Assembly (NCBI GenBank): GCA_050250375.1
Contig: JBFWOS010000001.1
Location: 1,086,361 to 1,150,360, forward strand
Origin: Candidatus Omnitrophota bacterium
Lineage (GTDB): Bacteria; Omnitrophota; Gorgyraeia; Zapsychrales; Zapsychraceae
DNA: 64,000 bases
Reading direction: 5' to 3'
Part shown: positions 25,966 through 43,600 of the stretch, piece after piece
How the letters are laid out: every line of letters starts with the position of its first letter
Position numbering within the stretch: position 1 is the first letter of the stretch
Made by a program: the position numbers and the translations under genes
The notes under the pieces: model-generated
What the model was told of the DNA's origin: nothing
Seen by the model: the letters and a program-made list of their open reading frames with translations, nothing else
Databases searched by the model: none

Positions 25966-26742
25966 TTAATAAATTTTCCTGATAATAAGGTTAGTCAAGC
26001 CGGGTGACAACCGGTTTAACAAATATAGCGGTATACACTTTTTTCCGATGACGACCATTTTTTTGTTCTTTTCAATGGCCGTCAGAATGGCCTGTGCAAC
26101 GGTGTCGGCACTGATCCCTGTTCTTTTATGTTGATACGGTTCATCACGGTACAAAACGTTTGGTTCGAATTCCGTTTCAACTTTCCCAGGACAGACCAAA
26201 ATAACCCGGATATTATCTTTCCTTGCATCTTCAGCCAGCGATTCGGTCAATCCGTTGACAGCAAACTTGGAAGACGAATACAATCCGCAATCATAAAATC
26301 CTTTGATTCCCGCCACCGAAGAAACATTCAGGATAACTCCTCCTCTCCGTTTCTTCATATATGGATAAACGGCACGGGTACAATACAATACTCCGTACAA
26401 ATTCGTAGCCAGCATGTCCCGATACAAATCCATCGGGCCCGTGATGATCGACCCCTTAAATCCCACACCGGCATTATTAATCAAGACATCCACTTGTCCG
26501 TATTTCCGGATCACTTGTTCCACCAAGTGCTGAACCTGATCTTCCTTCCCGACATCAGCCGGGATGACCATCGTATCACCACCGGTTAATTTACCTGCGA
26601 CAGCGTCAAGTTTATCTTTTCGGCGGGAAACAAGTACAACCCTGGCGCCTTTCTGGGATAACAACCCTGCACAGCTTTGTCCGATCCCCGAGGATGCACC
26701 TGTCACAATGACCACCTTGTTAGTAAAATCATATTTTTTCAT
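25966..26742 (-). CDS. Short-chain dehydrogenase/reductase (SDR) family oxidoreductase
   Basis: VVIVTGASSGIGQS (TGxxxGxG NAD(P)-binding motif). 258 aa. 4-nt overlap with the upstream DegT gene. Confidence 0.85.
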   Translation of the reverse strand: MKKYDFTNKVVIVTGASSGIGQSCAGLLSQKGARVVLVSRRKDKLDAVAGKLTGGDTMVIPADVGKEDQVQHLVEQVIRKYGQVDVLINNAGVGFKGSIITGPMDLYRDMLATNLYGVLYCTRAVYPYMKKRRGGVILNVSSVAGIKGFYDCGLYSSSKFAVNGLTESLAEDARKDNIRVILVCPGKVETEFEPNVLYRDEPYQHKRTGISADTVAQAILTAIEKNKKMVVIGKKCIPLYLLNRLSPGLTNLIIRKIY

Positions 26743-28055
26743 GAAAACTCCATCGGCTTGTTCATCGCCGGATAACCAAAATATTCTCTTATCACATTTG
26801 CCTGATAATAAATATCTTCATCCGATAAAAACTGTGAACACGGCAGCTCAATGATCTTTTCATCAACCAACTTCATTTGCGGATAACTTTCCTCATCATT
26901 TAAGAGCTCCGCGCAGTTACGCATGGACGATTCTTTCGAATCAATTCCTCTTAACAACAAATGCGTTCGGATCGCTTTTTTAAGAGGAGTAATTATATTA
27001 AACGACAACGCGATATGCTCCCTGTTTTCAACAATCGGTATCAGACCAATCTCTTTAACATCTTTCAGAAGATTTTCTAAAAGTTTTGCTTTAACGACGC
27101 GCCGGTCATTTGTTTCATCCAGCCTGGCCAGTTGGGAAAGCCCAAGTTGGGCTTGAAAGACTGTATACGGACTGATTTTGCTTTTGGAACGCGCATCCGC
27201 CGGGGTATATTTATCGCCTGTCAAGCGTTCAATCGGATCAAACTGAAACAAGTTAGAAAGAACGAGCCAGGGGTAGACAAAGAGCGAAAATAACAGCCGG
27301 TTCGTCAATGTTATCTGAAGTAATGATTTTAGATAATACCGGTAGCTTTTCAGCCGTTTATAGTCTCCGTGTACTCCATCCAGAATCTCTTTAAACTTAA
27401 AGAATCGCTTATTGTCTTTGCAGACGATCATTCCCCCGCCGAGTGTAACCAGACATTTTCCCGTTCCAAAACTGAACATTCCGAAATCCCCGAAACTTCC
27501 AATTTTCCGCCCCCTTTTTTCAGCCCCGCAGGCATGAGCTGCATCTTCAATAAGGATCAAATCATGCTTCATACAAATCGTTTGGATTTCCTGGATTTCA
27601 GCCGCACGGCCGAATAAATGGGTAACAACAATACCCCGGGTTTTAGGAGTGATTTTTTTCTCGATCATTCTGGAATCTATATTCAGAGTCTCCGAGTCGA
27701 TGTCTACAAATACCGGCTTCAACCCCTTACTCTTAAGCATGATCGGCATCACATGATAATTATAGGCCGCGAGAATGATCTCATCTCCCTGACACAGTCC
27801 GAGAGAATCGAGTAAACACGAAAAACCCTCCCGGACAGACGAAACGGCAGATGCATGCGGTACGCCGATATACTCTGCAAACCTTGTCTCGAATTCCAGA
27901 ATCTTGTCCGTTTTGTTCCTTGCTAAAAAAGATCCGCCCACGGATTTCAGATCTGCTTTGGAATAGGACACCAACCGTCTTGGAATGATTTTCAATTTTA
28001 CCCTTGTGTTTGTTTGATTAAATAATTTTTGATTCGATTTGGAAAACTCATTCAA
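26739..28055 (-). CDS. DegT/DnrJ/EryC1/StrS family PLP-dependent sugar aminotransferase (or dehydratase) with C-terminal extension
   Basis: LIEDAAHACGAEKRGRKIGSFGDFGMFSFGTGKCLVTLGGGMIV matches the family signature (EDAAqA.GA...G..G...FSF...K....GEGG) with the PLP lysine. Confidence 0.75.
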   Translation of the reverse strand: MNEFSKSNQKLFNQTNTRVKLKIIPRRLVSYSKADLKSVGGSFLARNKTDKILEFETRFAEYIGVPHASAVSSVREGFSCLLDSLGLCQGDEIILAAYNYHVMPIMLKSKGLKPVFVDIDSETLNIDSRMIEKKITPKTRGIVVTHLFGRAAEIQEIQTICMKHDLILIEDAAHACGAEKRGRKIGSFGDFGMFSFGTGKCLVTLGGGMIVCKDNKRFFKFKEILDGVHGDYKRLKSYRYYLKSLLQITLTNRLLFSLFVYPWLVLSNLFQFDPIERLTGDKYTPADARSKSKISPYTVFQAQLGLSQLARLDETNDRRVVKAKLLENLLKDVKEIGLIPIVENREHIALSFNIITPLKKAIRTHLLLRGIDSKESSMRNCAELLNDEESYPQMKLVDEKIIELPCSQFLSDEDIYYQANVIREYFGYPAMNKPMEFS

Positions 28056-28066
28056 AACTTTTTAAG

Positions 28067-29575
28067 TTATGATCTTACGGGCATCGGACTGACAACACCG
28101 ACAGAATTTTCCATCTTTTCATTCTCTCCATGAATTAAAAACATAATTCCGTCTTTGACAAGCTTTAAACTCCCCGGAGAATTACTCAGATAATATGGCA
28201 GATAGTTATAGAGATGTGAAAACACAAAAGAAGGCCTGAATAATATTTTTTTATAGAATACCCGTTGGATCTTTTTGAGAGCGGATAAATCTATTTGGCT
28301 CAAATTAACAATCGGCTTCAAGTAATGATGCGGAGATTGTAATTCTGAACTTTTGTCTGAATACCGTTTATAATCCACCGATCCGGGATAAAGTGTGAAA
28401 AAATGGACTTTTACCAGATTCGGCTGGATTTCCTGGCATAAGTCTATACTTTGCTGGATATCATGCTCTGATTCCGTTGGGCTCCCGACGATAAACATCG
28501 CGCACGAAGCGATTCCTGCCCGTCTTACATTATCAAACGCTTCCTTGACCTTTTGCCTCCAACCTGCCTGAAAAGAAGCTTTATGCAGCACATTCACGAT
28601 TTTTTGGGAACCCGATTCAATCCCGAACAAGAGCAGTTCGCAACCGGCATTTTTCATCACGGTTAATAATTCGGGAGGAACCTCATCAACGCGCGCATGA
28701 CAGGCCCATTTGATTTTAAGATTACGCCTGACAATCTCTTCACAAATTTTTGTAACATGATCTTTATTAAGTACAAAATCGTCGTCCTCAAAAGAAACCA
28801 CGTTAACGCCTATCCGGGTCAGCCGTTCTATCTCTTCAACCACTTTTTCCGGGCTGCGGGTTCTCAGCTTACGCCCGTAACTCTTTCTTACTGTCGGTGA
28901 ACAAAATGTACAGGCATGCGGACAGCCTCGTGATGTGGAGATGTATCCCGACACCATTTTTTGTGAAACCCGCATGGGATAAATATATGGGTACTTCGTC
29001 AATTCATCTTTACTCCAATCCAGGACCGGCAATTCGTCAATGTCATCTAACTGAATCAATTCATTACTTTTTATCTGGTTATAGTATGCTTTGACTGACT
29101 CAAAATCTTCCGGTGAATTTAAACGGTTAATCAGCGCATTTAATTCGATTTCAAACTCACCCCGGATAATCACGTCAAATAATTCCGGCAGGCTCAAATA
29201 AAACCGGTGTTTTTCAGAGACATCCGACCCGACCGCAACAATCGGCAAAGCCTTCTTTTTCTTAATTTTTCGGCACAATTCGATGGCGGCCTCAGATGAC
29301 GGTGAACCAATGGATACAACTATTAGATCAATTGCCTGCTGTTGAATTTGGTCCATAAGTCCATCAAAAGTCGGAGGATCAACCCAATAATCCAAAAGAG
29401 TAATATTATATTGACCTTGGTCCTGTAAAATCTTCTGAGCATATTTTAAAGGCAGGCAAGGCGCATAATGAACCGGATGCTTAATCTTTTTTCGATGGGA
29501 GTTCCCTGCCCGTATAAGAAGAATATTTTGATATTTTAGGACGGTGTTATTTATTGGTTTCATGTTCGAAATCAT
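28067..29575 (-). CDS. B12-binding domain radical SAM protein
   Basis: STSRGCPHACTFCSPTVRKSYG. N-terminal B12-binding-like domain. Confidence 0.8.
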   Translation of the reverse strand: MISNMKPINNTVLKYQNILLIRAGNSHRKKIKHPVHYAPCLPLKYAQKILQDQGQYNITLLDYWVDPPTFDGLMDQIQQQAIDLIVVSIGSPSSEAAIELCRKIKKKKALPIVAVGSDVSEKHRFYLSLPELFDVIIRGEFEIELNALINRLNSPEDFESVKAYYNQIKSNELIQLDDIDELPVLDWSKDELTKYPYIYPMRVSQKMVSGYISTSRGCPHACTFCSPTVRKSYGRKLRTRSPEKVVEEIERLTRIGVNVVSFEDDDFVLNKDHVTKICEEIVRRNLKIKWACHARVDEVPPELLTVMKNAGCELLLFGIESGSQKIVNVLHKASFQAGWRQKVKEAFDNVRRAGIASCAMFIVGSPTESEHDIQQSIDLCQEIQPNLVKVHFFTLYPGSVDYKRYSDKSSELQSPHHYLKPIVNLSQIDLSALKKIQRVFYKKILFRPSFVFSHLYNYLPYYLSNSPGSLKLVKDGIMFLIHGENEKMENSVGVVSPMPVRS

Positions 29576-29743: not shown

Positions 29744-31636
29744 TTATTCAAAGGGTTTTCCCAATTCAAATCTGGACTTGAGATCATCATGATATATGCT
29801 TTTAGCCTGATAAAACATCTTTCGAGCCTTACCCTGATATCCCAATTCTTGATAAATAGAACCCAAACGATAGTAACTGCGGGCGTCATCTGGATTAATG
29901 TCCAGGGTTTTCTGAAAAAACTCTACAGCCAGTTCATTCTGCCCCATTGAGGAATAACATTGTCCGATTTGAAAATAGGCTCTATAGTGTTTTGGATCTA
30001 AGGTTATAACCTGATTGAAATGCCGGATCGCTTCGGTATAATTCTTTGTCCTCAAATTAATCATCCCTAAATAATATTGCGCCCGAAGATGATAACCAGA
30101 TGATTTGTCAACCTTCTGCAATTCTTCAAAAGCGGTTTTATCTAAATTATTATAATAGTTGATAACTCCCAGATAATAATGAATATATGGGGCATCCTCC
30201 TGGATCAAGGCGAGACTATACCGGTAATTCAATTCCTGGTTCTGGCTATAAAACAAATTATACGGATGTATAAAGTCCGGTTCGATTTCCATTGCCTTAA
30301 ACCATGCGTCCAGTGATGAATTAAAATCATTCTTCTGAATAAATAACCATCCCAGATAACTCAGTGTTTCAATGTCGTTCGGTGAGTTTCGCAATAATCT
30401 TTTAACCTCGGCAATAGCCGGATCAAACATTTTTTTGTCTTCGTACATTCTGGCCGCGATATAATCATCATCAACAAAAGCTGAAAACCGGCGCGGCGGA
30501 TAACCCAGCCGATCAATAGTCAGAATAAAAATAGCGGCATTTATAACCAGATAAAATCCGTAAACAAGAACAACGGATTTGCAAACCCGGGAACGCCTAA
30601 ATCCTTCTGACAACATTTTGGCTGTGAAACAAACCGCTGGAATCAATACAATCGCCGCCCACCAAAACTCCCCCCACTTTAAGCCTGGCAGACTAAAAAA
30701 ACTCAACACACTGAAAACGACCGCAAAAATAAAATATAAAAGTTTGTAAAAATCATTTTTTATAAATTTAACAGAATATACCGTTCCAACCAGTAGAATA
30801 ATCCCCGTCAGACCGTCAATAATTGCATCCTCCCAACTGATTCTTAACCGATAGTCGACTCCTTCCAGCCAGGATAATGGCGCGATCAAGAAGAAGTTTA
30901 GTGCCGTCCGGTTGGGGATCCAGGCCGGCTTCAAATACATCTCGGGATTAAAAATCAACTGAGAGCTGCCGTAAATCGTGACCCATAAAATCCAGGGTGA
31001 AATCGTAACAATAAAGAATAAAAATGTTAAATAAAACTCCTTTGTTCGAAACCACTCTCTTTTTTTATTATCCGTAAATAAGAATAAAATCAATGCCGCC
31101 GCTAAAAGCAGACTTACTCCTTTTGTCAGAAAGGCCAATCCGCCTAGCGGTCCCAACCACAAAAACAGCTTTCGGTCGTTAGTTTTCACCGCTTTATGAT
31201 AGATCCAGATGATCAGCGTCGTTAAAAACAGCAACAGGCTGTTATTTTCCGACTTTACAGAAACATGCATATGAAACTGATTGAACGCTAGTAAAAATAC
31301 GGCCCAAAGGGCTTCCTGTTTTCCAATTTCCAGAACAAGGACATAAAGGACAACCAGCGTCAGGATACCAAACAACAAATGAAAAAAACGGACACCTAAA
31401 TTGGATTCGCCCAAAAACAGTGTTCCTATCTTGGTGGCATAGACGCTCAACAGCGGATGTGTTTCATAAGGGTCCTCAGCAGGAAGATTCAAATGATCCG
31501 GATTAAACGAAATTGAACGCGCGATTAATATCCCCTTACGCTCATCTTCTGTAAAAGGCGCGTTGAGAAGCATAATGCGCAATAATGAACCGATGAAAAT
31601 AAACGCAGTTAAAGTTATGTAATGTCTTTTCATCAA
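29744..31636 (-). CDS. GT-C-type membrane glycosyltransferase fused to C-terminal TPR repeats (TMTC/PMT_2-like)
   Basis: N-terminal ~11 TM helices followed by ~250 aa of TPR-like repeats (YYLGVINYYNN..., AQYYLGMINLRTKNYTEAIRHF..., AYFQIGQCY..., SYYRLGSIYQELG). Confidence 0.55.
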   Translation of the reverse strand: MMKRHYITLTAFIFIGSLLRIMLLNAPFTEDERKGILIARSISFNPDHLNLPAEDPYETHPLLSVYATKIGTLFLGESNLGVRFFHLLFGILTLVVLYVLVLEIGKQEALWAVFLLAFNQFHMHVSVKSENNSLLLFLTTLIIWIYHKAVKTNDRKLFLWLGPLGGLAFLTKGVSLLLAAALILFLFTDNKKREWFRTKEFYLTFLFFIVTISPWILWVTIYGSSQLIFNPEMYLKPAWIPNRTALNFFLIAPLSWLEGVDYRLRISWEDAIIDGLTGIILLVGTVYSVKFIKNDFYKLLYFIFAVVFSVLSFFSLPGLKWGEFWWAAIVLIPAVCFTAKMLSEGFRRSRVCKSVVLVYGFYLVINAAIFILTIDRLGYPPRRFSAFVDDDYIAARMYEDKKMFDPAIAEVKRLLRNSPNDIETLSYLGWLFIQKNDFNSSLDAWFKAMEIEPDFIHPYNLFYSQNQELNYRYSLALIQEDAPYIHYYLGVINYYNNLDKTAFEELQKVDKSSGYHLRAQYYLGMINLRTKNYTEAIRHFNQVITLDPKHYRAYFQIGQCYSSMGQNELAVEFFQKTLDINPDDARSYYRLGSIYQELGYQGKARKMFYQAKSIYHDDLKSRFELGKPFE

Positions 31637-33261
31637 TCGGAACTTGTCCTTTTAAAAATGTACACACCCTCATTATCTTTGGAAAATTGACGGATATGTT
31701 TAAACGTATGCCAGAACAGTTCCGGCCTTGTTAGATCATACCAATAGAGATTTATTTGTTTCACCGGCATAAAATCGATCCCCCGGGAAGAATAATTCTG
31801 CATTATTTGTTCGGCTTGATAAAGATAAATCCCAAAAGCAACGATATAGTCAGGAACTTCTTCCCCTTTGAAATGAATCCGGGGCAAGTCCTTAAATTGG
31901 GTGCTTTCTTTTTCGATTTGCCAGGCGTACAGCGGCTCCGGCGCATGATACATTAACGGGTATGCCGCATAATCCGGGGTCACCCACAGATTGTCCTGCG
32001 AAGAAATATTCTGACGAATCCATTGAGCCGTTTCCCAGTACGCGCTGGGGGGAGGATTTAGAATTTCCAAAATGTAATTAAAAATCGTTGACCGAATCGT
32101 GCCCCGGGCAATGACCTGACTAAAAATCGTTTTATCATCAATACCGGCTAGAGACCCCCCGTGTAAAATGTTCGTGAAAAATGACAGAACAATGATACTC
32201 AAAGCTATTAATTTTGAGTGAACCCGAATAAGATGCACGCTCAGTACAGTGATCAAAATCCCCAAAGGAATTAAAGGAACCAGATAACGGACAAACGCCA
32301 CCGACAATAAACTAATCGGTTGGGGAGACATAACCGAAACCACCAAAACATAAATAAAGAAAACCTGAAAACAGCGCCATAACCGCCTGTCTTTATGAAA
32401 AAGCGCTAAACCAGGCGCTAATAATCCGATAATTGCCCCCACACCTAATTCACAACGGTTAAAATCCCTCCAATTCCATAAAAACAAAAATCCTTTTTCA
32501 ATAATCCATGGCTTTCTGGGGACACCCCAAACATCAATCGATAAAGGATTATAAAAACTGACGAGGACTGCTCCTAATACCAATTGACTGGTTAAAAACA
32601 AAATTATTTGTTTTCTGTTCCACGGTTTTTCTTTATTTCCCCAGAAAAAATAATCGGCCGTTAAACCACCCACAACCCCGGCATAACATAGATAATTCGA
32701 ACATAACAACAAAAAAGAAAACAGGCTCAAAATAACGGTTGTTTTTGTACGGTTATCGCGAAAATGATAAAAATACGCCACAAGGACAGAAAACAACACG
32801 GCTGGGCCAAAGTAACGGCACTGGCGAAAAAACAGAAAAAATGAAACATTCGTCAAAAAACCTAAACACATAAGGATCCAGGTTATCTGCGGGGCCTGGC
32901 TGCGTCTCAACCAGAATAAGACAACCCCTAACGTCACTAATCCACAAAATGCAAATGGCATCCTGGCCGCTAATGCTGATCCCGGCGCCTGCCCCACAAA
33001 CGGCGCTGCCAGATAAAAAGATAATGGCGGGATAAACCGATTACGAAAATCTTTCAATTCTACCCCGGAATTATACGCGACAATATTTTGCCCGATCTTA
33101 GCGCTTGTATCACCGGTCCTCCAGACGGACTGGGCAAATAAAGCGGTCGTCGCCTCGTCATCCCATAAGGCGTATGATCCCAGGTTACAAAATAATAGAA
33201 ATGAGGCCGCCAAGAGAACAACAATACTCAGGAAGACTTGGGTTTGATTATTTGGAGGCAT
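31633..33261 (-). CDS. GT-C membrane glycosyltransferase, ArnT/PMT (GT39/GT83)-like
   Basis: First periplasmic loop carries LWDDEATTALFAQ, the DE-containing signature of ArnT/PMT-type GT-C enzymes. Polytopic, 542 aa. Confidence 0.6.
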   Translation of the reverse strand: MPPNNQTQVFLSIVVLLAASFLLFCNLGSYALWDDEATTALFAQSVWRTGDTSAKIGQNIVAYNSGVELKDFRNRFIPPLSFYLAAPFVGQAPGSALAARMPFAFCGLVTLGVVLFWLRRSQAPQITWILMCLGFLTNVSFFLFFRQCRYFGPAVLFSVLVAYFYHFRDNRTKTTVILSLFSFLLLCSNYLCYAGVVGGLTADYFFWGNKEKPWNRKQIILFLTSQLVLGAVLVSFYNPLSIDVWGVPRKPWIIEKGFLFLWNWRDFNRCELGVGAIIGLLAPGLALFHKDRRLWRCFQVFFIYVLVVSVMSPQPISLLSVAFVRYLVPLIPLGILITVLSVHLIRVHSKLIALSIIVLSFFTNILHGGSLAGIDDKTIFSQVIARGTIRSTIFNYILEILNPPPSAYWETAQWIRQNISSQDNLWVTPDYAAYPLMYHAPEPLYAWQIEKESTQFKDLPRIHFKGEEVPDYIVAFGIYLYQAEQIMQNYSSRGIDFMPVKQINLYWYDLTRPELFWHTFKHIRQFSKDNEGVYIFKRTSSD

Positions 33262-34906
33262 CAGTCACGGAATCCTTAGGTTCAAACACATAATGAACAT
33301 TTATCGTGTGATGATAATATGACAGCTCAAAACATGGAAATATATGGGTTTGCTTATAATATTGGTTAATTGCATCCTTAAACCGGGGTGTCCAGCGGTC
33401 GTACTCCATCCCCACCCCTGTCATGATGATTATTCCAAACCGATGGTTCTTCAGATCGTTAATTATTCGGCCTTCATCCCATTTTCCATCTAGGGCCAAC
33501 TGAGCCATGGAGAAGGACTGATAGACAGACTCTTTCCCGTTTTGAAGGGCATATCCCATATATTCAGATAACACTTCCCCGGATGAGTCGCGAATCAATT
33601 CAGTCATATCGTTTGAGGCCTGACGGTATTCCGCTGACGGCAGGGTAAAATCAATCCGTTTGTGAAGAATTAATAGTTGTATAATGAGTAACATGAAAAA
33701 AAATAAACCCAGCAGATGGGCTTCCCATTTTAGAGCTCCCCTCTCGAACCGGCTTAAAAGTAAACCTGTCAACACGCAATTTGCGGCCCAGAACTCCAAA
33801 AAGTAATTTATGGATGCCCCCAATTTCCCCGCGGTTATTGTGACCAGCAGCGAAAACAACCAAAAGAACTCGGGAACAGACATTTCCCTTTTCTTAAAAG
33901 CGATAACGACTGACAAGGCCGATATCCCCGTCAAAACCCAATGTGTATTCCAGAACTCTTTAAACCATTTGAAAAAATCACTCAGCTCAAACGAACTCAT
34001 CGTATAAAATACAGTGTGCCGGATAAACTCTCCATGGGTAACACAATTAAGCGCAAAGAGAACCCCGGCCGTTATCCCAAAGAACAAAAGCAGAAATAAT
34101 TTAAAATACTCTACGTTTCGTTTCCTATCTTGTCCCTTTATAATGTTCCATCCGTACCAAGCCGCACAAGCTACCGGTGCGGCAATCATACTTTGACGTG
34201 AATATAACGCGGCGCTAAAGCATAATACGGATAAAAAAATCGCAACAAAATCCTTAGGCTGATCTTGATTTGTGACAAGACTAATCCCGGCCAGGACAAA
34301 CATCAAAGCAAACACATCAATCCGGCAAAGGACTGACCAACAGATCAACCAGCTGGACGTAAAAAAGATTAAACCGGCAATCAGAGCCGACACCTGCTGC
34401 CGGGTGACATTGTTAACAATCTTATAGATAAAATAACCGGACAAGACAGCGGCCCCGACCGAAAGCATTCGTCCCAGCATAATTTTCGGGCCAAAAACCT
34501 TAATCAGACCTGCCAGGATAAATTCGAAGAACGGCGTATAGTTCATGACGAAATACGGCTCCCGGTCAATGGGAGAATATATATTTTCTCCCTTTGACAA
34601 CAACCAGGCCCGATTAATGATCAACCCTTCCCCGACATCAAGATCATACGGATAGACGATCAAATTAAATGCATAGGCCGCATAGTTCAGGAAGTTATAC
34701 ACCAGAACAGCCGCCATAACCCATAAAAAAATTCTGACTATCCAGTTTTCCTGAGAAGGTGTTTTGGGTAATTGAGACATTCTAGTTTGATTTCCTGATT
34801 TAAACTCAATCCTACCAGACAATATTAATTCTGCTCTTGAAGAATCTCGGGTTTGCTTAAAAAGGGAACCGCTTGATTTTTGACTAAATTTATTACTGCC
34901 AAACAA
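33248..34906 (-). CDS. Polytopic membrane protein, putative GT-C glycosyltransferase
   Basis: Polytopic membrane protein with a soluble 45-aa N-terminus. A likelier start is the Met at ~34780 (MSQLPK...), which removes the 82-nt overlap with the upstream gene. Contains PYDLDVGEGLIINRAW in the first loop. Confidence 0.4.
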   Translation of the reverse strand: MFGSNKFSQKSSGSLFKQTRDSSRAELILSGRIEFKSGNQTRMSQLPKTPSQENWIVRIFLWVMAAVLVYNFLNYAAYAFNLIVYPYDLDVGEGLIINRAWLLSKGENIYSPIDREPYFVMNYTPFFEFILAGLIKVFGPKIMLGRMLSVGAAVLSGYFIYKIVNNVTRQQVSALIAGLIFFTSSWLICWSVLCRIDVFALMFVLAGISLVTNQDQPKDFVAIFLSVLCFSAALYSRQSMIAAPVACAAWYGWNIIKGQDRKRNVEYFKLFLLLFFGITAGVLFALNCVTHGEFIRHTVFYTMSSFELSDFFKWFKEFWNTHWVLTGISALSVVIAFKKREMSVPEFFWLFSLLVTITAGKLGASINYFLEFWAANCVLTGLLLSRFERGALKWEAHLLGLFFFMLLIIQLLILHKRIDFTLPSAEYRQASNDMTELIRDSSGEVLSEYMGYALQNGKESVYQSFSMAQLALDGKWDEGRIINDLKNHRFGIIIMTGVGMEYDRWTPRFKDAINQYYKQTHIFPCFELSYYHHTINVHYVFEPKDSVTDASK

Positions 34907-36630
34907 ATGGTCAATGCCGTGACGATTAATCCGATTATAAAAGTTTCAGGAAGATAGTATAATCTGATCTGATAAGTCCCGGGCGGCAACAGGACGGAAA
35001 TCAACCCATGGATTTCTGTTACTGGTGTTTTCTTACCAGCAACCTCCGCCTTCCATCCCTGATGATAATTTTGATTGATCATCAATAGATTCGCCTCATT
35101 CAAGTTAACCGAGAATCTTTGTTCGTTTGGTGAGAAATATTCTTGGTCAATTTCCCCGTACGGTCGGTCCAAATAAAATTCTCCCCTGTAATCCGGTTCC
35201 CCCATCACTTTCACATCTCCCTGCTTAAGTTGCATTACTTCGTAAGCCTCAATTATCCCGCCGTTACTAAGAAAAACGGGATATATTGAACTGTTCACCA
35301 AATAGTCCTCATAAAACAAAACTTCCCTGTATCTCTGAGCAAATATAATATTTTCCCGAAGCTGTACAGATTCAACTCTAAACGCATTCTGAAACACCGA
35401 AGAGTTTGATTCGTATAAATCATATGTAACCAACATAAAAAGAGCCATCGGTATAACAAATAAATAATTCTTATGTTGATTACTTTTCTTTTGCATGTAT
35501 TGGTCAAATGCATAAAACGTCATCCCGGCAATAATCGAAAGATAGAAAATAAACCCAAGGATAAACCTGGAGGGGACAGTCAAAGAATCATACACTGGAA
35601 ATTTGTGAAGCATGGACCAAAGGTTTAACAATGGCGAATTACCCATCGCAATGATGAACGTGATCAGACCAGAACAAATCAACGGCCATTGCTTTTCGAA
35701 AAACTTTATAGTCCCCCACATACATAAAATTAACGGAATATATCCGACGTAAGCCCCGTATTCATGCCATTCGTAAACCAATCCCATCCTGTAACCATCC
35801 AGCCAATTCATCATATCCAATATGCTTTGGTCAGGATTCAATAGCATATGAAACAACACGTTTATCGAAACGGCGCTGTCATCAGACATCACCCGCGGAT
35901 TATGTCCAATGAAATCCAACATCGGGATCAATTTAACGGCACAAAAGAGAAATGTCCCGGCAAGAATGACGCCCAATGATTTAACCGGGAACCATTGCCG
36001 CATCTGGATGGACTTTAAAAAAGCAAACAGAACTATAAAAACCATCATAATATTAAAAACATCCACACTTCCATTGAGCAGGATCAGGCTTAGAAAAATG
36101 ATTCCCCCCAAAATATTTTTTGATTCTTCTAAACTTTTTAAATAAAATAAAAAAAACCACGGGACAAACGCCATGGCCAGCCATTCTGTGTGCCCTTCTG
36201 TGAGATGCAGCGAGAACAAAGAAGAGCCCATAAAAATAAACGATGATAAATACCCTCCCATTCCCCGAACACCGAGATGTTTGGTCAAAATATACATTCC
36301 GCAGAAACCTAAAAAAAGATGCACAGTAATTTGTATTTTTAACCCCATGATCGGTCCAAAAAATAATACGAAGATGAAAAACGGAGAAAGAAACGGTGAA
36401 TGCGGATGGGCAAGCATAACATTCCCGCCATTCACATAAGGATTCCAGAGAGGAAATTGGTGATACGTTAAAATGGTTTTATGCGGAACCGCATTCCACA
36501 TAATAAATTGATCCCAGTCCTTCTGCCCGAACAGTTCGTTGTTTTCAAAAATGGAATGAGAAAAAATGATAGCAGCCAGTGCAAAAAGAAGCATCGTGAT
36601 GAAAAAATTATTTTTCATAAAGTTCAACAT
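34825..36630 (-). CDS. Polytopic membrane protein with C-terminal extracytoplasmic domain (YfhO/GT-C-like)
   Basis: ~12 TM segments followed by a ~170-aa soluble C-terminal domain. Sits in the GT-C array. Confidence 0.35.
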   Translation of the reverse strand: MLNFMKNNFFITMLLFALAAIIFSHSIFENNELFGQKDWDQFIMWNAVPHKTILTYHQFPLWNPYVNGGNVMLAHPHSPFLSPFFIFVLFFGPIMGLKIQITVHLFLGFCGMYILTKHLGVRGMGGYLSSFIFMGSSLFSLHLTEGHTEWLAMAFVPWFFLFYLKSLEESKNILGGIIFLSLILLNGSVDVFNIMMVFIVLFAFLKSIQMRQWFPVKSLGVILAGTFLFCAVKLIPMLDFIGHNPRVMSDDSAVSINVLFHMLLNPDQSILDMMNWLDGYRMGLVYEWHEYGAYVGYIPLILCMWGTIKFFEKQWPLICSGLITFIIAMGNSPLLNLWSMLHKFPVYDSLTVPSRFILGFIFYLSIIAGMTFYAFDQYMQKKSNQHKNYLFVIPMALFMLVTYDLYESNSSVFQNAFRVESVQLRENIIFAQRYREVLFYEDYLVNSSIYPVFLSNGGIIEAYEVMQLKQGDVKVMGEPDYRGEFYLDRPYGEIDQEYFSPNEQRFSVNLNEANLLMINQNYHQGWKAEVAGKKTPVTEIHGLISVLLPPGTYQIRLYYLPETFIIGLIVTALTICLAVINLVKNQAVPFLSKPEILQEQN

Positions 36631-38284
36631 ACACCCCGTCTTTTGTTTTTTTAAGGGTTTTCGTATAATGCATATCCATATAGCGCCTTACATTTTGTGA
36701 ATTTAATCCCAATATTTTGGATTCTACCCCATCATTATGCCAACTGGCAATAATCAACCATACCCGTTCAAAATTTTGATCAACGGTCGAATCATCCATG
36801 AGTAACATTGTTCCGTTCGGCAAAGGAACAAAGACTTGCATTTGATCGATTTTATCCTGAGGGATCATCCGCAACAAAGCGTTAATCTTTAAAAAACGAT
36901 TATCAAACCTCTGCATTAATTTCGGAAACATAAAAAACCGAAATTGTTCAAACGACAACGGTAGTTTTTCTCCTGAATGTTTTAACAAATATGAGAAAAC
37001 CATCACATACGCCTGGGTATCCGTAACGACTATCCGGTCTCCCTTTTTAAAATGATCTTTAACATAATCAAACTGCGACCAATAATTTTTTTTAGGGACG
37101 ACCCCTGTAAAATAAAGCGCACGGGCCGGATGGTCAAACATGTAATTCCTGTAATAATTATAAAGACAAGAAACCTGCAGAAGTAAAATACAAATGACCA
37201 CGAAGTTCTGGTCTTTTTTTGAAGTTATCCCCTCTATCCCTTTCGCGATCAGTAAAAAATAATATGGTGAGAAAATCAATAGTTGGCGGTTGATATATAA
37301 CGGAATAACTTTCAAAGATAAAAAATAAATTAAAATAATTGGAGCAACGCCCAAGAGTAAAATCAAAACCGCTTTTGTGCGGGATTCGTTAAAACACACG
37401 TAAAACCCCCAGAAAAACAGAATAAGAAATATCACCAGACCAATGCTATATTGAATAATTCCAGCCGAATATCCGAGGCTGAAAATCATCCAGGTGAACA
37501 AAAACATGCCGGGTGTAGGCGAAGGCAGCCAGAAGTCTTCCTTGACAAAACTGACCTGACTGCTAAAAACAGGAAGATAAAAAGAACTGACTGCGGCCAT
37601 GATGACCATCGCCAAAAACCATTTTTTCATTTTTGGTTTATTGTCCTTAAAATTCATGGCCACGACAAATATACTTAACAAAAAAACAGCATAATATGTA
37701 GCAAACAACGATAAAACACCCAATATGGAAAATCCGATCCAATATCGCCATTGATCTGTGTTCAAGGCACGAATGAACAAATAGACCATAGACAAAGTCA
37801 AAAATACGGCCAAAGAGTACACCCTGGCTTCCTGGGCATACCATATATGGACGGGACTAATAGCCATTACCAGCAACGCATAAACGCTTACCTTTTGATT
37901 AAAAAACAATCTGGACAATTGATAAAAGACTCCCAATGCCAAAATACTAAACATGACAGATAGAATGCGCAGCGATTCCCCGTCCCCAAAAAATCGGCTG
38001 ACCTGATATATCAAACCATAATAAAGAGTTGAATGTGGATCATTATGAATACGATCTCTAAAAATAGTAGACCCGTTCAGATGTGATAATTGAGCCATCT
38101 TGTGAATATTATCATATGAGAACAAATCCGTTCCCAATTCATCAAACCATAGGTCATAGGCATATAGTCCATAAACTCTTACAATTATTGCACATATAAA
38201 AATAATTAAAATTATAAATTTTGGCTGACGCATCTTCAAAATAATATTTTTATTATTATTAATATTTATCAATGTAATATACAC
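36608..38284 (-). CDS. GT-C membrane glycosyltransferase, ArnT/PMT-like
   Basis: N-terminal loop YAYDLWFDELGTDLFSY (DE motif as in ArnT/PMT). Polytopic with a C-terminal soluble domain. Confidence 0.5.
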   Translation of the reverse strand: MYITLININNNKNIILKMRQPKFIILIIFICAIIVRVYGLYAYDLWFDELGTDLFSYDNIHKMAQLSHLNGSTIFRDRIHNDPHSTLYYGLIYQVSRFFGDGESLRILSVMFSILALGVFYQLSRLFFNQKVSVYALLVMAISPVHIWYAQEARVYSLAVFLTLSMVYLFIRALNTDQWRYWIGFSILGVLSLFATYYAVFLLSIFVVAMNFKDNKPKMKKWFLAMVIMAAVSSFYLPVFSSQVSFVKEDFWLPSPTPGMFLFTWMIFSLGYSAGIIQYSIGLVIFLILFFWGFYVCFNESRTKAVLILLLGVAPIILIYFLSLKVIPLYINRQLLIFSPYYFLLIAKGIEGITSKKDQNFVVICILLLQVSCLYNYYRNYMFDHPARALYFTGVVPKKNYWSQFDYVKDHFKKGDRIVVTDTQAYVMVFSYLLKHSGEKLPLSFEQFRFFMFPKLMQRFDNRFLKINALLRMIPQDKIDQMQVFVPLPNGTMLLMDDSTVDQNFERVWLIIASWHNDGVESKILGLNSQNVRRYMDMHYTKTLKKTKDGVYVELYEK

Positions 38285-38355: not shown

Positions 38356-38586
38356 TTATTGGTAGCAAATGCCGGAGAAAACCGAAGCACCACCGGGCGT
38401 ACTTCCTGTATTCACCCAATTCGTGGTTGTCCCGCCACAGGCGGTAGGCCCCAAAGATGTCGCCAGCGATAACGTCGCGCATTGGGCTTGCACATCTTTC
38501 GGTTCAGACAGGACAACATAGCCAAAAAGACTTACAAAGACCATATATATGATTAGCAGCGAATAAATTATTCTATCTTTGTTCAT
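38356..38586 (-). CDS. Small secreted Cys-rich peptide, paralog 3
   Basis: 76 aa. Signal peptide ending VQA-Q. Mature peptide with 3 Cys, Thr/Gly/Ser-rich. Confidence 0.5.
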   Translation of the reverse strand: MNKDRIIYSLLIIYMVFVSLFGYVVLSEPKDVQAQCATLSLATSLGPTACGGTTTNWVNTGSTPGGASVFSGICYQ

Positions 38587-38601: not shown

Positions 38602-38862
38602 TTAATTTTGAAAACATAAATATGCGTTAATCGGCACACCGTATGGTCCCGCAGTATATCCCATAATTTGTGGACCACTGGGCTGAGCCGTGCCCGGACA
38701 ACCTGGTATACATCCGGCACCTGTACAGGTTTCAATCGTTATTTGAAAACACGTAGTCTGGGCATTGACAATACTTGGTTTATATAAAACCGCATAAAGA
38801 AGCAAATAAACGAATACCATCGTCGTTGAAATGAACATATATATGGTTCGTTTTCTATTCAT
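38602..38862 (-). CDS. Small secreted Cys-rich peptide, paralog 2
   Basis: 86 aa. Signal peptide ending VNA-Q. Mature peptide QTTCFQITIETCTGAGCIPGCPG... with 5 Cys. Confidence 0.55.
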   Translation of the reverse strand: MNRKRTIYMFISTTMVFVYLLLYAVLYKPSIVNAQTTCFQITIETCTGAGCIPGCPGTAQPSGPQIMGYTAGPYGVPINAYLCFQN

Positions 38863-38876
38863 AAAAAATAACCTTT

Positions 38877-39140
38877 TTATGGATTAAAGCATAAACCTGT
38901 TTTCATCTGTACTCCATATACACCAGGGGTGTATCCACTATTGACAATATCCGATGATAATAAACCGTTCAATGGACATATAGGTGTACACGTTGCTCCT
39001 ATGCATGTTGCTAGGGTGATTCTATAACACACCTGCGCTTCAACTTCTTTTGGTTTACTCAAAAAAGAATATAAAAAAGTATACGCCGCAACAATCATCA
39101 CTGGAATAAATAAATAGATCAAACGCCTTTTAGACATCAT
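38877..39140 (-). CDS. Small secreted Cys-rich peptide, paralog 1
   Basis: 87 aa. Sec-type signal peptide (n-region KRR, h-region, cleavage-like VEA-Q). Mature ~52 aa with 5 Cys, Thr/Gly-rich. Confidence 0.55.
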   Translation of the reverse strand: MMSKRRLIYLFIPVMIVAAYTFLYSFLSKPKEVEAQVCYRITLATCIGATCTPICPLNGLLSSDIVNSGYTPGVYGVQMKTGLCFNP

Positions 39141-39219
39141 CTTCTCCTGAAAAAACCTATCAAAATTATATCATCCTGTATAAACTCTATCAAGCTCCGG
39201 AATCACATCATCAACCAAC

Positions 39220-40563
39220 TTAAGGTTGACAGGCTCCCCCCGGACAATTCGCAGCACCGGCACAACAATCACCATTATTTACCCCTCCGACACAAACACC
39301 GGTTTGACCCGGAAGACAACAATATGGTCCTCCTGGAGCCCCGCCGCCGACACAGTTATTACTACAGCAATCCGCAGGAACCGCACAATCAATTCCATTT
39401 GGAGTACAGGATCCAGCCGTATCAAACTGGCAACACCCTAGAACTTCTTGATTCCCTGCATTACAGCCACTTATATCTGCTACACCAGTTCCACACGCAT
39501 TCTGTTGAACAGCCATACAACAATATCCGCCCCCTCCAATCCATTCACACCAAGGAAAAAATTCACATCTGGCAAAACGATTGTCGATGGCCGGTGTAGG
39601 ATATAACAAAGCCACGTTTGTTAAAAAAGATGTGCATGGCGTGTGTTCTTGACAGCCGCTGAACGGATTCCAATTGCAGGCAGATCCATAAATCTGTTCA
39701 CATTGGTCAAAGGGTAAGCCCACGCAACCTGTTGGTTCAGGGGGGGCGGGCGGGGGTATTCGTACACCGCAATCACCGGCCGAAAGCGTACAATCTATAA
39801 TACACACACCTAAAATATTGATTGATCCCGACGGACATTCACAGGATGTTGCCCCAAAACCCGGAACAAACGAAGTCGCACATTCCCACTGACATTTGGG
39901 TGCACTCCCGACAGGAGCACTGCACTTACCTTCTTCAACAAAAACAACATTCTGACTGGCAGGCAAATTGATATTGTCTTGAGGACAGATGTCCGTAGCG
40001 TATTCAGGGTCTCCTGGATTGGGTGGATTTAAACATTGATTTAAACAATTTCTATTAAATTGGCATTCCACTCGGGTGGGATTGTTGTGATCAGGATCGC
40101 CCCCGCAAGAATATAAGGCAGGAACCTCATCGGCGGCACATCCCTGAGTACCGCAATTAATTGGCACAGGCAATTGAACGGGCGTGGTACAACAAGCCGG
40201 CGTTTCAGTACATAAATAATTTAAGCCGCCCGGAGGGGAATTATAACCCAGAGGATTACAAATCCATGCTTGAGTGGCTTCGTATTCTTCACATGTTCCA
40301 TAACCGCAACATGGCGGTAAACTGCATGGTTCTTGATAACTACAAGTCCCGGTAACATCGATGACTCCAGGGGGACTTGCCCCGATTGGATCTTGGAAGG
40401 AATCTGTGACAGAGTCCTCCCAGCCTTTGATATTGGCATTCCAAGAACGGATTACGTAAGGGCTCATGACATAAACCCCGGCCAGGACTAAAATAATCAA
40501 AAGGGCATATTCAATAATACTCTGCCCTTTTTCAGAAAACAATTTTTGAAAAAGCTTCCGCAT
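39220..40563 (-). CDS. Flp-pilin-like (class III signal peptide-like) N-terminus fused to a ~400-aa Cys/Pro/Gly-rich extracellular domain
   Basis: N-terminus KGQSIIEYALLIILVLAGVYV fits the Flp motif G-x4-EY followed by a hydrophobic helix. The rest has >50 Cys (CC, CxC, CxxC patterns) and low hydrophobicity. Confidence 0.5.
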   Translation of the reverse strand: MRKLFQKLFSEKGQSIIEYALLIILVLAGVYVMSPYVIRSWNANIKGWEDSVTDSFQDPIGASPPGVIDVTGTCSYQEPCSLPPCCGYGTCEEYEATQAWICNPLGYNSPPGGLNYLCTETPACCTTPVQLPVPINCGTQGCAADEVPALYSCGGDPDHNNPTRVECQFNRNCLNQCLNPPNPGDPEYATDICPQDNINLPASQNVVFVEEGKCSAPVGSAPKCQWECATSFVPGFGATSCECPSGSINILGVCIIDCTLSAGDCGVRIPPPAPPEPTGCVGLPFDQCEQIYGSACNWNPFSGCQEHTPCTSFLTNVALLYPTPAIDNRFARCEFFPWCEWIGGGGYCCMAVQQNACGTGVADISGCNAGNQEVLGCCQFDTAGSCTPNGIDCAVPADCCSNNCVGGGAPGGPYCCLPGQTGVCVGGVNNGDCCAGAANCPGGACQP

Positions 40564-40693: not shown

Positions 40694-43600
40694 CTATAGA
40701 CTTTGATGGCATTGAAGCAATACATCCGCTCCTAATTTCCAGCAATGATACAGGTCTCCCAGGAACGCCGCTGGACACGGAGCCCCTTCATTTATTGTAT
40801 AGCCGGGATACCCGGAGAAAGCCGCCCCGCAGGCAGGAGAGAATGGAATCAACTGTGTTGTTTGCTGAATTTTAATCCATTCCCCGTCCTCCGCACAAGC
40901 ACCCGCATCAACTGAATACCCGGAATTACATTGATATTCACATTTTGGAGCCCCGCAGGTAATCACCAGAGATCTGTTCATATTCGTCCCACCCGGGATA
41001 TTCGTATCATCCCCGGAACAATATGCTGCATTGGCCGGTACGCTACCGATACAAATATTCGGGTCGCACACTCCACCGCCGTCATGATATGTATCCGTGC
41101 AGATGTATTCACATTTCGTTCCAACCGTGCACGCAGGCACAACCGTTCGTGGCACGTCGGAATTGCCGGGGATATTAGCATCGTCTCCGGAACATATTGT
41201 TGTGTTTGCAGGCACAGCTCCTATACATTGGTTAAGATTGGTACACCCTGAACCATCGAAATTAAATCCGTCATCACAAATATATTCACATTTTGTTCCA
41301 GCAGTACAAGCTGCCACGACCGTGCGCCCGACATCAGCATTCCCCGGAATATTGATATCATCTCCGGAACAAATCGTCGCATTAATTGGAATAGCCCCTG
41401 TACATATATTTACATCACATGAAGCCCCTCCGAAATTATATCCATCATTACAAATATATTCACATTTAGTTCCAGCCGTACAAGCACCCACCAGAGTACG
41501 GGAAACATCAGAATTGCCCGGGATATTTGTTCCGTCACCGGAACATATGGACGCGTTGGAAGGAGTTGCTCCTGTACAGACATTGACATCACATTGGTTG
41601 GCTCCTCCGTCGTGATATCCGCTGTTGCAAGTATACTCACACAAAGTTACTGTACAAGCCGATACGGTTGTAACCGGCGTATCCGCCAATAATCCGGTGT
41701 TATCTCCCGGACAAATCAGTGCGTTCGCATCAGGTGTTCCTGTACACATGAACGGACGGCACGTGTTCGCGTCTTTGGTAAATCCCGGATCACAGGTGTA
41801 TTCACACTTTGTTCCGCCGGTACATGCATTCGCCACGGTCCGGCCGACATTTAAATTTCCCGGAATGTTTGTATCATCTCCGCTGCATAACGTCGCGTTG
41901 GATGGAACCGTTCCGGTACAAATATTGACGTCACAAACCCCACCGGACTCGTGGAATCCGTCATTACACAAATATTGACAATAAATCGGCAACGTACAAG
42001 CGCCTACGGCCGTGCGGACAACGTCCGAGTTCCCAGGAATTCCGGTATCGTCCCCTGCACAGAGTGTTGCGTTTGACGGAACAGTCCCCGTACAGGCATT
42101 TAAATCACACACCCCGGCGTCATAATTGTATCCGTTGCTGCAGGTATATTCACATTTTGTTCCAATCGTACAGACCGGAACCAAAGTTCGAGCCACATCA
42201 CTGTTCCCAGGAATATTCGTGCCATCCCCCGTACACAATCCCGCATTTGGCGGTACCGCCCCGGTACAGACATTGGCCACACAAATCGTTCCGTTAAAAT
42301 TGAAACCACTGCTGCAGGTATATTCACATTTTGTTCCGGCCGTACAAGCCGCCACCAAGGTTCGGGTAACATCACCATTACCGGGAATATTAATGTTATC
42401 CCCGATACACAAAGTTGCATTAGCCGGCGGCGCTCCGGTACAAACATTGGCATCACATTGATTAATTCCGGCGTCCTTATATCCGCTGTTGCATGTATAT
42501 TCACACATCGTTGCTGTACAGGCTGATACTGTTGTGACCGGCGTATCCGCCAGTAACCCAATATTATCTCCCGGACAGATGGTTGAATTCGAAGCCGGGG
42601 TGCCGATACAATCAAACGTTTCCACCACACAAGCTGTACCGGCGAGATTTAATTCATATCCGGGGTCACAAATGTATTCACACTTGGTCGCTGTACAAGC
42701 GCCAACAAGTGTTAAAGCTAAATTGGCCCTTCCGGTTATATTGGTCCCATCCCCCGCACACAATGTTGCATTAGACGGCGCTGATCCGGTACAAACATTA
42801 ACGTCACACTGGTTAACCCCCGCATCATGATATTCCGTGTTACACCGGTATTCACATTTTGTACCAAACGTACAGGTATTTACCGTCGAAACTGACACAT
42901 CCACGGTCAATCCTGCATTATCTCCAGCACACAGTACAGAATTCGGATCAGGCACTCCGGTACATGCCGGCGCACGACAATCGTTTCCATCAAGAACAAA
43001 ACCGGCATTACATTCATATTCACATTGTGTTCCGGCCGTACACCCTCCTGTAATAACGGCTGTTTTGGGAGTATTCGCCGGCAAATCATCATTATCATTC
43101 AGACAGATTGTGCTATTTGTCGGATCCGGGCCGGTACATAGATAAAGGGGAACACAGGTTATTCCACTGCGGACATAAAACGGCCGGCAGACATGCTCGC
43201 ACTTCACGGGCTGGGTACACGTATCGACTAAGGTATTCGGGGTGTCTGCTGTAAGGCCGGTATCATCCGGTTCGCATATGGTATCAAGATCATAATCGAC
43301 ACAGCACAAATTAGAATGGGCGGGTGCGGGACCGGTACATTGAAACAGAACACAGGCAGTACCATCACTGTAATATCCCGGGTCGCATAAATATTCACAT
43401 TTAGTTCCCGCTGTACATGCGCTGACCGGAGTCCGTGGAGTATCTGCACTTAAACCCGTATCATCGCCGGCACAGAGTGATGAATTAGTTGGAACAGCCC
43501 CGGTACAGACATACGGCACACAACTACCAGCGGAATAATAGTAACCGGCATTACAGCTATATTCACATTTTGTCGGGCCGGTACAAGAAGCAACAAGCGT

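Follow-up and report, generated by a model that had tools for sequence, protein, structure and literature searches.

A 64,000-nucleotide stretch of a Candidatus Omnitrophota genome (the window in what follows) carries a gene cluster in which five consecutive genes, here called G1 to G5, encode polytopic membrane proteins of the GT-C glycosyltransferase fold. Our main finding is a pairing: every ortholog of G5 in the loci that we compared is preceded by one to three genes for small Cys-containing peptides predicted to be secreted. As judged from the sequences, this pairing is strict and co-conserved, the peptide family is previously undescribed, and the two together offer a specific, testable enzyme-substrate pair. 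We propose that the cluster encodes a periplasmic glycosylation system fed by polyprenyl-phosphate sugars, in which G5 would act on the peptides encoded upstream of it and the other four enzymes would extend the glycan or modify surface proteins or the envelope; to this reading as a whole we give an even chance. New here are the peptide-G5 pairing and the GT-C family of G2, which Pfam does not recognise; four of the five enzymes already bore generic names in GenBank (Table 1).

Transfer of lipid-linked monosaccharides to proteins by GT-C enzymes is well studied in eukaryotes (PMT, TMTC, TMEM260, DPY19), and in bacteria is known from actinobacteria and, more recently, from streptococci. To our knowledge, no acceptor has been assigned to most PMT_2 and YfhO genes of bacteria. 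The Omnitrophota are thought to live attached to hosts, as host-dependent nanobacteria; in the literature on their glycosyltransferases, radical-SAM enzymes and cell envelope we found no description of this cluster.

Small secreted peptides encoded upstream of G5

To place the window in context, all its proteins were compared with the open reading frames (ORFs) of 160 loci: 80 genome loci around relatives of G2 and 80 metagenome loci around relatives of G4 (L numbers below). With a score of >330 bits defining a G5 ortholog, there were 14 such genes in 13 loci, and all 14 had 1-3 peptide ORFs on the same strand, 66-767 nt upstream. These were found in the window and in L005, L006, L007, L009, L011, L012, L013, L015, L085/L086, L167 and L168. 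Three distant G5-like genes had no upstream peptide ORF.

The pairing persisted through five different gene orders: (a) peptides-G5-G4-G3-G2-G1, as in the window; (b) G2-GT2-GT9-peptide-G5; (c) radical-SAM-GT9-peptides-G5-G4; (d) peptides-G5-G2-G4-G3-...-DegT-G1; and (e) two peptide-G5 units either side of G2-GT9. A hidden Markov model trained on the peptides of class (a) only was used to scan 17,210 small ORFs from 2.58 Mb of loci (E <= 0.01). It found 14 further members in the other gene-order classes, each of them upstream of a G5 ortholog. Among the same 17,210 ORFs no member lay away from a G5 ortholog, and loci with a G2 or G4 ortholog and no G5 had no member of the family.

The peptides have in common a basic start, a hydrophobic stretch of ~20 amino acids (aa) and a Gln that directly follows an AxA-type cleavage site. 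The predicted mature part is 42-59 aa long across the family and 42-52 aa in the three peptides of the window, which have 3 or 5 Cys each. The first Cys lies a few residues past the cleavage site and the last 2-7 residues from the C-terminus; 22 of the 24 family members have either 3 or 5 Cys. The stretch [ST]-G-[YF]-T-x-G-x-Y-G is semi-conserved. Neither Pfam nor NCBIfam gave a match to the family. In two loci (L011, L168), fusions join the peptide domain to a Cys-rich module resembling the C-terminus of a 447-aa protein with a Flp-like leader that is encoded nearby in the window, which ties the peptide family to that protein.

The preliminary description of this region had suggested a multi-enzyme protein O-glycosylation system from the closeness of the GT-C genes to genes for secreted proteins. 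A protein target gains partial support from our comparison, by evidence of a different kind, namely the peptide family upstream of every G5 ortholog in five gene orders. The part of the argument that drew on the large Cys-rich proteins fared less well: these proteins accompany the array in just one clade, where the housekeeping flank is retained as well, and the surroundings of G2 and G4 relatives are of glycan type (both below).

The five GT-C enzymes and the genes around them

The window matches contig JBFXCX010000003.1 of assembly GCA_050181705.1, and NCBI labels proteins identical to its products as those of a Candidatus Omnitrophota metagenome-assembled genome. Genes lie on the minus strand nearly throughout the 64-kb window (ORF listing). 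Five back-to-back polytopic ORFs had been placed at 29744-38284, and this layout stood, with the starts of G3 and G5 moved downstream on the evidence of orthologs and public gene calls (Table 1). G5 and G4 overlap by 23 nt, G3 and G2 by 14 nt, and G2 and G1 by 1 nt (4 nt if the longer G1 ORF is used); G4 and G3 are separated by a gap of 44 nt. When the minus strand of 28-47 kb was searched for a sigma-70-like promoter consensus, the best match lay directly upstream of the first peptide gene. The three peptide genes and the five GT-C genes probably form one transcription unit.

All five proteins are GT-C-fold glycosyltransferases, as judged by Pfam and by fold searches of two high-confidence models. 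They have a common layout of a first transmembrane (TM) helix, a loop of 55-76 aa, a TM bundle and a C-terminal soluble domain, and each combines an Asp-containing motif in the first loop with sequence or structural likeness to established GT-Cs. G1 (4.4e-26, 92.4 bits), G5 (7e-9, 36.5 bits) and G3 (1.1e-7, 32.7 bits) exceeded the gathering score of Pfam PMT_2 (PF13231), which is 26.1 bits. G4 scored 39.0 bits against a cut-off of 28.5 with the Pfam YfhO model, which covered its last 76 residues only; it is also named YfhO by NCBI, and its GT-C fold was confirmed by a fold search of the predicted structure. Searches of PDB sequences with G1, G2 and G5, and with family profiles of G2 and G4, returned TPR matches or nothing, so that a fold search was needed.

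The preliminary description had read an acidic first-loop signature in two or three of the five; it is present in all, and conserved within each family. In G2 (LWDDE), W33, D35 and E36 are invariant among 30 homologs. G5 orthologs keep LWFDE as W-x-[DE]-E, and G1 orthologs keep the DE of FTEDE in the general form [x]DE. The G3 motif, [YF]P[YF]D-x-[DN]-x-GEG, is conserved in 4 orthologs, and D40 of the G4 motif DWD is invariant in its family. These motifs occupy the same first-loop position as the catalytic D55/E56 of ArnT and D77/E78 of Pmt1 (PMC7801869). Elsewhere in the G4 family, an invariant W-x-E-x-G-A-Y-x-G (WHEYGAYVG, residues 288-296), within a loop of the membrane domain, recalls the WWDYG of oligosaccharyltransferases.

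The five had been called paralogs, a wording that we drop because an all-versus-all BLASTP gave no significant similarity among them and a profile-profile comparison of the G2 and G4 families was null; judged by sequence, they appear anciently diverged, neither recent duplicates nor close paralogs. G2 represents a widespread GT-C family missed by Pfam, found in the Planctomycetota-Verrucomicrobiota-Chlamydiota (PVC) group and other phyla and often in tandem copies. The Pirellulales loci have 2-4 G2 paralogs in tandem, and those of Isosphaeraceae have tandem runs of several G1-, G6- and G2-like ORFs, some of which seem to be fragments (G6 is described below). Such arrays occur in metagenome-assembled genomes of both groups (L040, L047, L022, L082, L083), and multi-copy arrays are common in Planctomycetota. 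A dense GT-C array by itself is thus not unusual, because tandem arrays are common in the superphylum.

Within GT39, the PMT/POMT type found no counterpart: there was no PMT (PF02366), MIR or PMT_4TMC match at E<=0.1, and PMT_2 was the only model matched. Classification as O-antigen ligases or polymerases, or as ArnT with a full arn operon elsewhere, had been named as an outcome that would tell against the preliminary description. Neither Pfam nor NCBIfam gave a Wzy_C or O-antigen ligase/polymerase match for the five or for the 583-aa protein at 24210 (Table 1), and none of the five matched the ArnT equivalog of NCBIfam.

The C-terminal TPRs of G1 matched TPR_1/2/8 of Pfam at ~1e-22 (residues ~480-620), and are predicted to lie outside the cytoplasm because a crude count gives 9 TM segments. 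The TPR fusion that had been noted for this gene is therefore real; the likeness to TMTC enzymes drawn from it is one of domain architecture. Much the same applies to the gene at 60600 (G6), proposed as a sixth TMTC-like gene. It has TPRs, the only feature Pfam detects, and a TMTC-like DD motif, kept in its relatives, but its membrane domain has no Pfam match, and PMT_2 was reached by only one of six relatives. By BLAST, G6 also weakly resembles the part of G3 covered by PMT_2 (E 1.7e-4).

A further candidate lies at 24210-25961, and, from its sequence family, is probably one more GT-C of the cluster, the sixth and a divergent one. The protein itself has no direct Pfam or NCBIfam match. Its family has a DHD motif in a long loop, in which D150 is invariant and D152 nearly so (at least 90%), and gives weak matches to TMEM260 (E 0.061 in PDB; 2 of 22 members in Pfam), PTPS_related (8e-6 in 1 of 22 members) and Mannosyl_trans4. 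A gene of this family lies near a PMT_2+TPR gene in L165.

Table 1. Features of the window, in order of position
Feature	Coordinates	Strand	Description
GH94-family gene	738-3434	-	Cellobiose/chitobiose phosphorylase or glucan-synthase type; far end of cluster
GT9	4475-5674	-	Heptosyltransferase-like; Glyco_transf_9 at 6e-30 (Pfam)
SGNH(GDSL)-TPR paralogs (four)	5682-7058, 13208-14671, 14937-16220, 21486-22886	-	SGNH/GDSL hydrolase domain + TPRs
GT2	7069-7770	-	233 aa; Glycos_transf_2 at 7e-31 (Pfam); candidate polyprenyl-phosphate-sugar synthase
Radical-SAM genes (seven)	7767-9065, 11702-13195, 16224-17627, 17643-19070, 19067-20152, 20088-21245, 28067-29575	-	Within 22 kb
NifS-like cysteine desulfurase	9069-10286	-	
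583-aa polytopic protein	24210-25961	-	~13 TM; unannotated family, 207 representatives
SDR	25966-26742	-	Pfam/NCBIfam
DegT	26739-28055	-	DegT-type sugar aminotransferase (Pfam/NCBIfam)
B12-binding radical SAM	28067-29575	-	One of the seven radical-SAM genes; directly downstream of G1 (Pfam/NCBIfam)
G1	29744-31633	-	PMT_2-type GT-C + C-terminal TPRs, 629 aa; first-loop FTEDE; GenBank: glycosyltransferase family 39
G2	31633-33261	-	GT-C, 542 aa; first-loop LWDDE; family without Pfam recognition; GenBank: hypothetical
G3	33248-34780	-	PMT_2-type GT-C, 510 aa; first-loop YPYDLDVGEG; GenBank: ArnT family glycosyltransferase
G4	34825-36630	-	YfhO-family GT-C, 601 aa; first-loop DWD; C-terminal beta-sandwich + terminal TM helix; GenBank: YfhO family
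G5	36608-38233	-	PMT_2-type GT-C, 541 aa; first-loop YDLWFDELG; GenBank: glycosyltransferase family 39 protein
Small secreted peptides (three)	38877-39140, 38602-38862, 38356-38586	-	Signal peptide + AxA-type site, then Q; candidate G5 acceptors
Sigma-70-like promoter match	39165-39193	-	TTGATA-17-TATAAT with TG, directly upstream of first peptide gene; consensus match only
447-aa protein	39220-40563	-	11% Cys, 10% Pro; N-terminus EKG/QSIIEYALLIILVLAGV, Flp-prepilin type (our own judgement)
1420-aa protein	40694-44956	-	Secreted; ~17 Sushi-like repeats of ~57 aa; 11% Cys, 11% Thr; faint Pfam Sushi match
Fibre-like protein	44989-46170	-	Secreted; C-terminal Peptidase_S74 intramolecular chaperone, Pfam 1.1e-14
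G6	60600-62351	-	Polytopic, C-terminal TPRs, first-loop GDD (TMTC-like architecture); among housekeeping genes

The GT2 gene had been singled out as being of the right type to make a polyprenyl-phosphate-sugar donor, and this held up: its best NCBIfam matches, all below the curated cut-off, are PgfS (top), ArnC, PpgS, AglJ and Dol-P-hexose transferase, models of enzymes that make polyprenyl-phosphate sugars, which makes GT2 a candidate for the same activity. In the window GT2 is 22 kb from the array. Elsewhere its orthologs directly adjoin G2 or G4 orthologs; they lie beside G2 in L009, L012 and L013, in the order radical-SAM-G2-GT2-GT9-G5, and GT2 genes are close to G4 relatives in L165 and L166. 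The GT9 gene reached 120.5 bits with the heptosyltransferase II model (cut-off 134.6). Three of the seven radical-SAM genes have a Pfam B12-binding domain, two best match B12-type radical-SAM models and two are of SPASM type; none of the seven reached an equivalog cut-off. Radical-SAM homologs recur next to GT-C genes in Omnitrophota loci, and homologs of the SGNH-TPR proteins lie near G2 or G4 relatives in L015, L104 and L114. SGNH domains often acylate or de-acylate extracytoplasmic glycans, and the SGNH-TPR proteins may do the same here.

Within 10 kb of G4 relatives, 27 of the 80 loci had GT2, 15 DegT, 14 SPASM-type radical-SAMs, 8 G5, 7 GT9 and 7 G1-like genes, and the B12-type radical-SAMs were found in 6-14 loci each. 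The G2 and G4 families thus travel with GT2, DegT, B12-type radical-SAM and GT9 genes, which indicates that the array is one part of a large conserved module serving sugar tailoring and the glycosylation of the envelope. More widely, the Omnitrophota carry large loci that combine many radical-SAMs with periplasmic glycosyltransferases, pointing to unusual envelope sugars. The array itself varies: L011 has two copies of G1, L168 has no G1 between G2 and the radical-SAM gene, and L007 has another order. L007 also has, between its G3 and DegT orthologs, a 281-aa ORF (8217-9062, plus strand) starting MHWLMIENILTIDCEDWYH, with no counterpart in the window; we read it tentatively as polysaccharide-deacetylase/ArnD-like. 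A YdjC-family gene of L165 occupies a similar position.

Upstream of the peptide genes lies a run of Cys-rich surface-protein genes headed by the fibre-like gene, beyond which the housekeeping genes start; the Peptidase_S74 (endosialidase chaperone) domain is typical of trimeric phage-tail or surface fibres. The 447-aa protein had no Pfam match at E<=1 and none in NCBIfam, and no tad genes were found in the window. A database of 5.8 billion sequences yielded just 17 members of its family, and no GT-C lies near a distant one (L169). The full order of large Cys-rich protein, Flp-like protein, small ORFs, G5-G4-G3-G2-G1, radical-SAM/DegT/SDR and 24210-like gene recurs in L005, L006, L011, L167 and L168. 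L167 and L168 also keep the flanking purH, Mur ligase, mnmE and cvpA. We considered this synteny as functional evidence and rejected it, given the retained flank, the size of the 447-aa family and the L169 relative: with a single clade and the housekeeping flank kept, it reflects descent, and adjacency to the large Cys-rich proteins therefore says little on function.

Proposed pathway and alternative acceptors

Starting from the GT-C fold, the first-loop motifs, the operon-like layout and the co-conservation observed above, we propose a route of which the donor, the flipping step and every acceptor are inferred. Cytoplasmic DegT, SDR and B12/radical-SAM enzymes of the ~35-kb cluster would tailor a nucleotide sugar, and GT2 would put the sugar onto polyprenyl phosphate. 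The lipid-linked sugar would then be flipped across the membrane, where each GT-C would pass it to an extracytoplasmic acceptor through its first-loop Asp/Glu motif. For G5 this step would be peptide or protein glycosylation of the upstream peptides. Because the family is always encoded directly upstream of G5, these small Cys-containing peptides are the best candidates, and on the sequence evidence probably the acceptor; they are also the most economical choice. G1-G4 may add further sugars to that glycan; they may instead act on the Cys-rich surface proteins encoded nearby, or on an envelope polymer or lipopolysaccharide (LPS).

A narrower form of this proposal, which we regard as tentative and rather doubtful, is that G5-type GT-Cs are dedicated to disulfide-stabilised secreted peptides and that the cluster builds and attaches a heavily tailored amino sugar modified by radical-SAM enzymes. 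The cluster would then comprise, with G5, four to five more GT-Cs, the seven radical-SAMs, DegT, SDR, GT2, GT9 and the four SGNH-TPRs, and would yield a surface layer of glycopeptide or glycoprotein, or an adhesin set, in host-dependent nanobacteria. With an odd number of Cys, an unusual linkage is conceivable, e.g. an S-linked sugar or covalent tethering.

Several observations weigh against the proposal as a whole. The Ser/Thr content of the peptides is only moderate (median 17%), and they have none of the extended disordered stretches of Ser and Thr that usually mark the known bacterial protein substrates of GT-Cs. Of the 13 G5 loci, those that are assigned belong to Omnitrophota and the others are metagenome contigs without assignment; the peptide-G5 link thus rests on one lineage, within which gene order varies. 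The nearest NCBIfam model to G5 is mannosyltransferase MT1671, a weak full-length match, which presumably corresponds to Rv1635c, an enzyme acting on lipoglycan. Seen more widely, the surroundings of G2 and G4 relatives resemble glycan or LPS loci (GT9, WecA-like, Wzm/Wzt, GT1-family and WbqC genes). In L165 the G4 relative lies among WecA-like, Wzm/Wzt-type ABC transporter, three GT1-family, DegT, GT2 and YdjC-family genes, together with radical-SAMs, the 24210-like gene and the PMT_2+TPR gene; in L166 the company is WbqC, CapK_C and DegT. YfhO-type enzymes glycosylate proteins and also teichoic acids (PMC12041528), and because they act on both, family membership does not fix the acceptor. 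Finally, the peptides may be accessory subunits, or products co-transcribed with G5 but unrelated to it.

Some of these points feed the strongest alternative, which we consider a real possibility if short of probable: the sugars would go to an envelope glycan or glycolipid, be it the LPS core, lipid A or a polymer resembling O-antigen or teichoic acid, and the peptide and Cys-rich genes would be functionally unrelated to the GT-Cs. Besides the glycan-type neighbourhoods and the teichoic acid precedent, it can draw on the recurrence of the heptosyltransferase-like GT9 gene beside G2/G5 orthologs (L009, L012, L013, L015, L085), on the four SGNH-TPR paralogs of the window, and on the 80 metagenome loci, in none of which a large Cys-rich protein is encoded near the G4 relative, the synteny elsewhere being by descent. 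The logic would be that of Gtr, ArnT, Rhizobium RgtA-D and YfhO/CsbB, i.e. periplasmic decoration with lipid-linked sugars. What this alternative leaves unexplained is the strict peptide-G5 pairing across five gene orders. Wzm/Wzt, Wzx/Wzy, WecA and lpx genes, moreover, were not seen in the 64-kb window, the ArnT equivalog was unmatched, and the ArnB and ArnC models were matched only far below their cut-offs.

It is unlikely, in our estimate, that the peptides are accessory or regulatory subunits of G5, or exported disulfide-rich adhesins, toxins or signals that mature in another way (e.g. through radical-SAM/SPASM enzymes) while G5 is co-transcribed for another purpose. The cluster does have two SPASM-type and five B12-type or other radical-SAM genes, the number of Cys, nearly always odd, hints at a covalent fate beyond simple disulfide pairing, and the Cys-rich module of the Flp-like protein is found joined to some peptides. 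However, the Sec-type signals and AxA-type sites imply that the peptides exit the cytoplasm, where radical-SAM enzymes work, and no radical-SAM gene tracks the peptides as tightly as G5 does. For the same reasons we do not favour reading them as ribosomally synthesised and post-translationally modified peptides, a reading that the SPASM and other radical-SAM genes had suggested.

We also considered G4 as an oligosaccharyltransferase-like enzyme that N-glycosylates the 1420-aa protein, whose Sushi-like repeats have an N-x-S/T sequon (P-x-N-[AS]-[ST]-[LI]-C) at a fixed position in 11 of 14 scored repeats in the window, 9 of 13 in L167 and 4 of 9 in L006, and we rejected this as highly improbable: the conservation is partial (in L006 the +2 Ser/Thr survives in only 4 of 9 repeats), the 21 sequons are close to the ~16-17 of a rough composition-based estimate, and oligosaccharyltransferase hallmarks are lacking in G4, which has no STT3 Pfam match, has its W-H-E-Y-G-A-Y (residues 288-294) in a mid-domain loop and not past the last TM helix, resembles such enzymes structurally in the general GT-C core only, and has relatives without such repeat proteins nearby.

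Comparison with known systems

The proposed periplasmic system, in which peptides would be the acceptors of G5, would match by analogy the logic of the three-component Gtr, Arn and Pgf-type systems. We considered the arn operon itself and rejected it for the window genes scanned, with all arn models far below cut-off. DegT reached 123 bits against the ArnB cut-off of 631 and GT2 72 bits against the ArnC cut-off of 529 (NCBIfam). Of ArnBCADTEF, the system for aminoarabinose on lipid A, the equivalog scores were not reached for ArnT, ArnB or ArnC. The genes scanned in the window included no ArnA- or ArnD-type gene and neither a formyltransferase nor a deformylase, and the peptide pairing has no Arn counterpart. 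In Rhizobium, several GT-C paralogs (RgtA-D, with RgtE) add galacturonic acid to the LPS core and lipid A; there too the peptide pairing has no counterpart.

G1 and G6 resemble the eukaryotic O-mannosyltransferases TMTC1-4 (GT105; PMC7801869) in architecture: a first-loop acidic pair marks their GT-C-type domain, and the TPRs that come after it are expected to be non-cytoplasmic. The pair is DE in G1, a PMT_2 member, and DD in G6 only. No DUF1736 or TMTC-specific match was found for either at E<=0.1 (for G6, also at E<=1). Prokaryotic homologs with TMTC-like architecture have already been described as common (PMC7801869).

For an enzyme beside its protein substrate there are two bacterial precedents. 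TfpW is a GT-C-type enzyme whose gene adjoins pilA. It modifies the type IV pilins of Pseudomonas aeruginosa with D-arabinofuranose (bioRxiv 10.1101/2020.04.19.049825), and, in the group IV strains, is likewise a polytopic membrane glycosyltransferase acting on a small secreted or surface protein. The peptides described here, in contrast, have Sec signals and not prepilin leaders; a Flp-like leader is found only on the neighbouring 447-aa protein.

Close parallels are the streptococcal Pgf and GtrB/PgtC2 systems of protein O-glycosylation (PMC12041528), in which a GT2 makes the lipid-linked sugar and one or more GT-Cs with a loop DxD transfer it, outside the cytoplasm, to secreted or membrane proteins. 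The differences are several: the host here is a diderm Omnitrophota bacterium, the GT-Cs are five mutually unrelated enzymes and not two YfhO homologs, the candidate substrates are Cys-containing peptides of 40-60 aa and not long disordered Ser/Thr-rich regions, many radical-SAMs accompany them, and the system is known from its genes alone. The resemblance lies in three features: candidate substrate genes sit in the same cluster as the enzymes, G4 is a YfhO-family member, and the window GT2 has PgfS as its best NCBIfam match. In the pgf cluster of Streptococcus mutans, PgfS, the YfhO-type PgfM1/PgfM2 and adhesin genes are likewise found together (PMC12041528), a precedent for a GT-C encoded beside its protein substrate.

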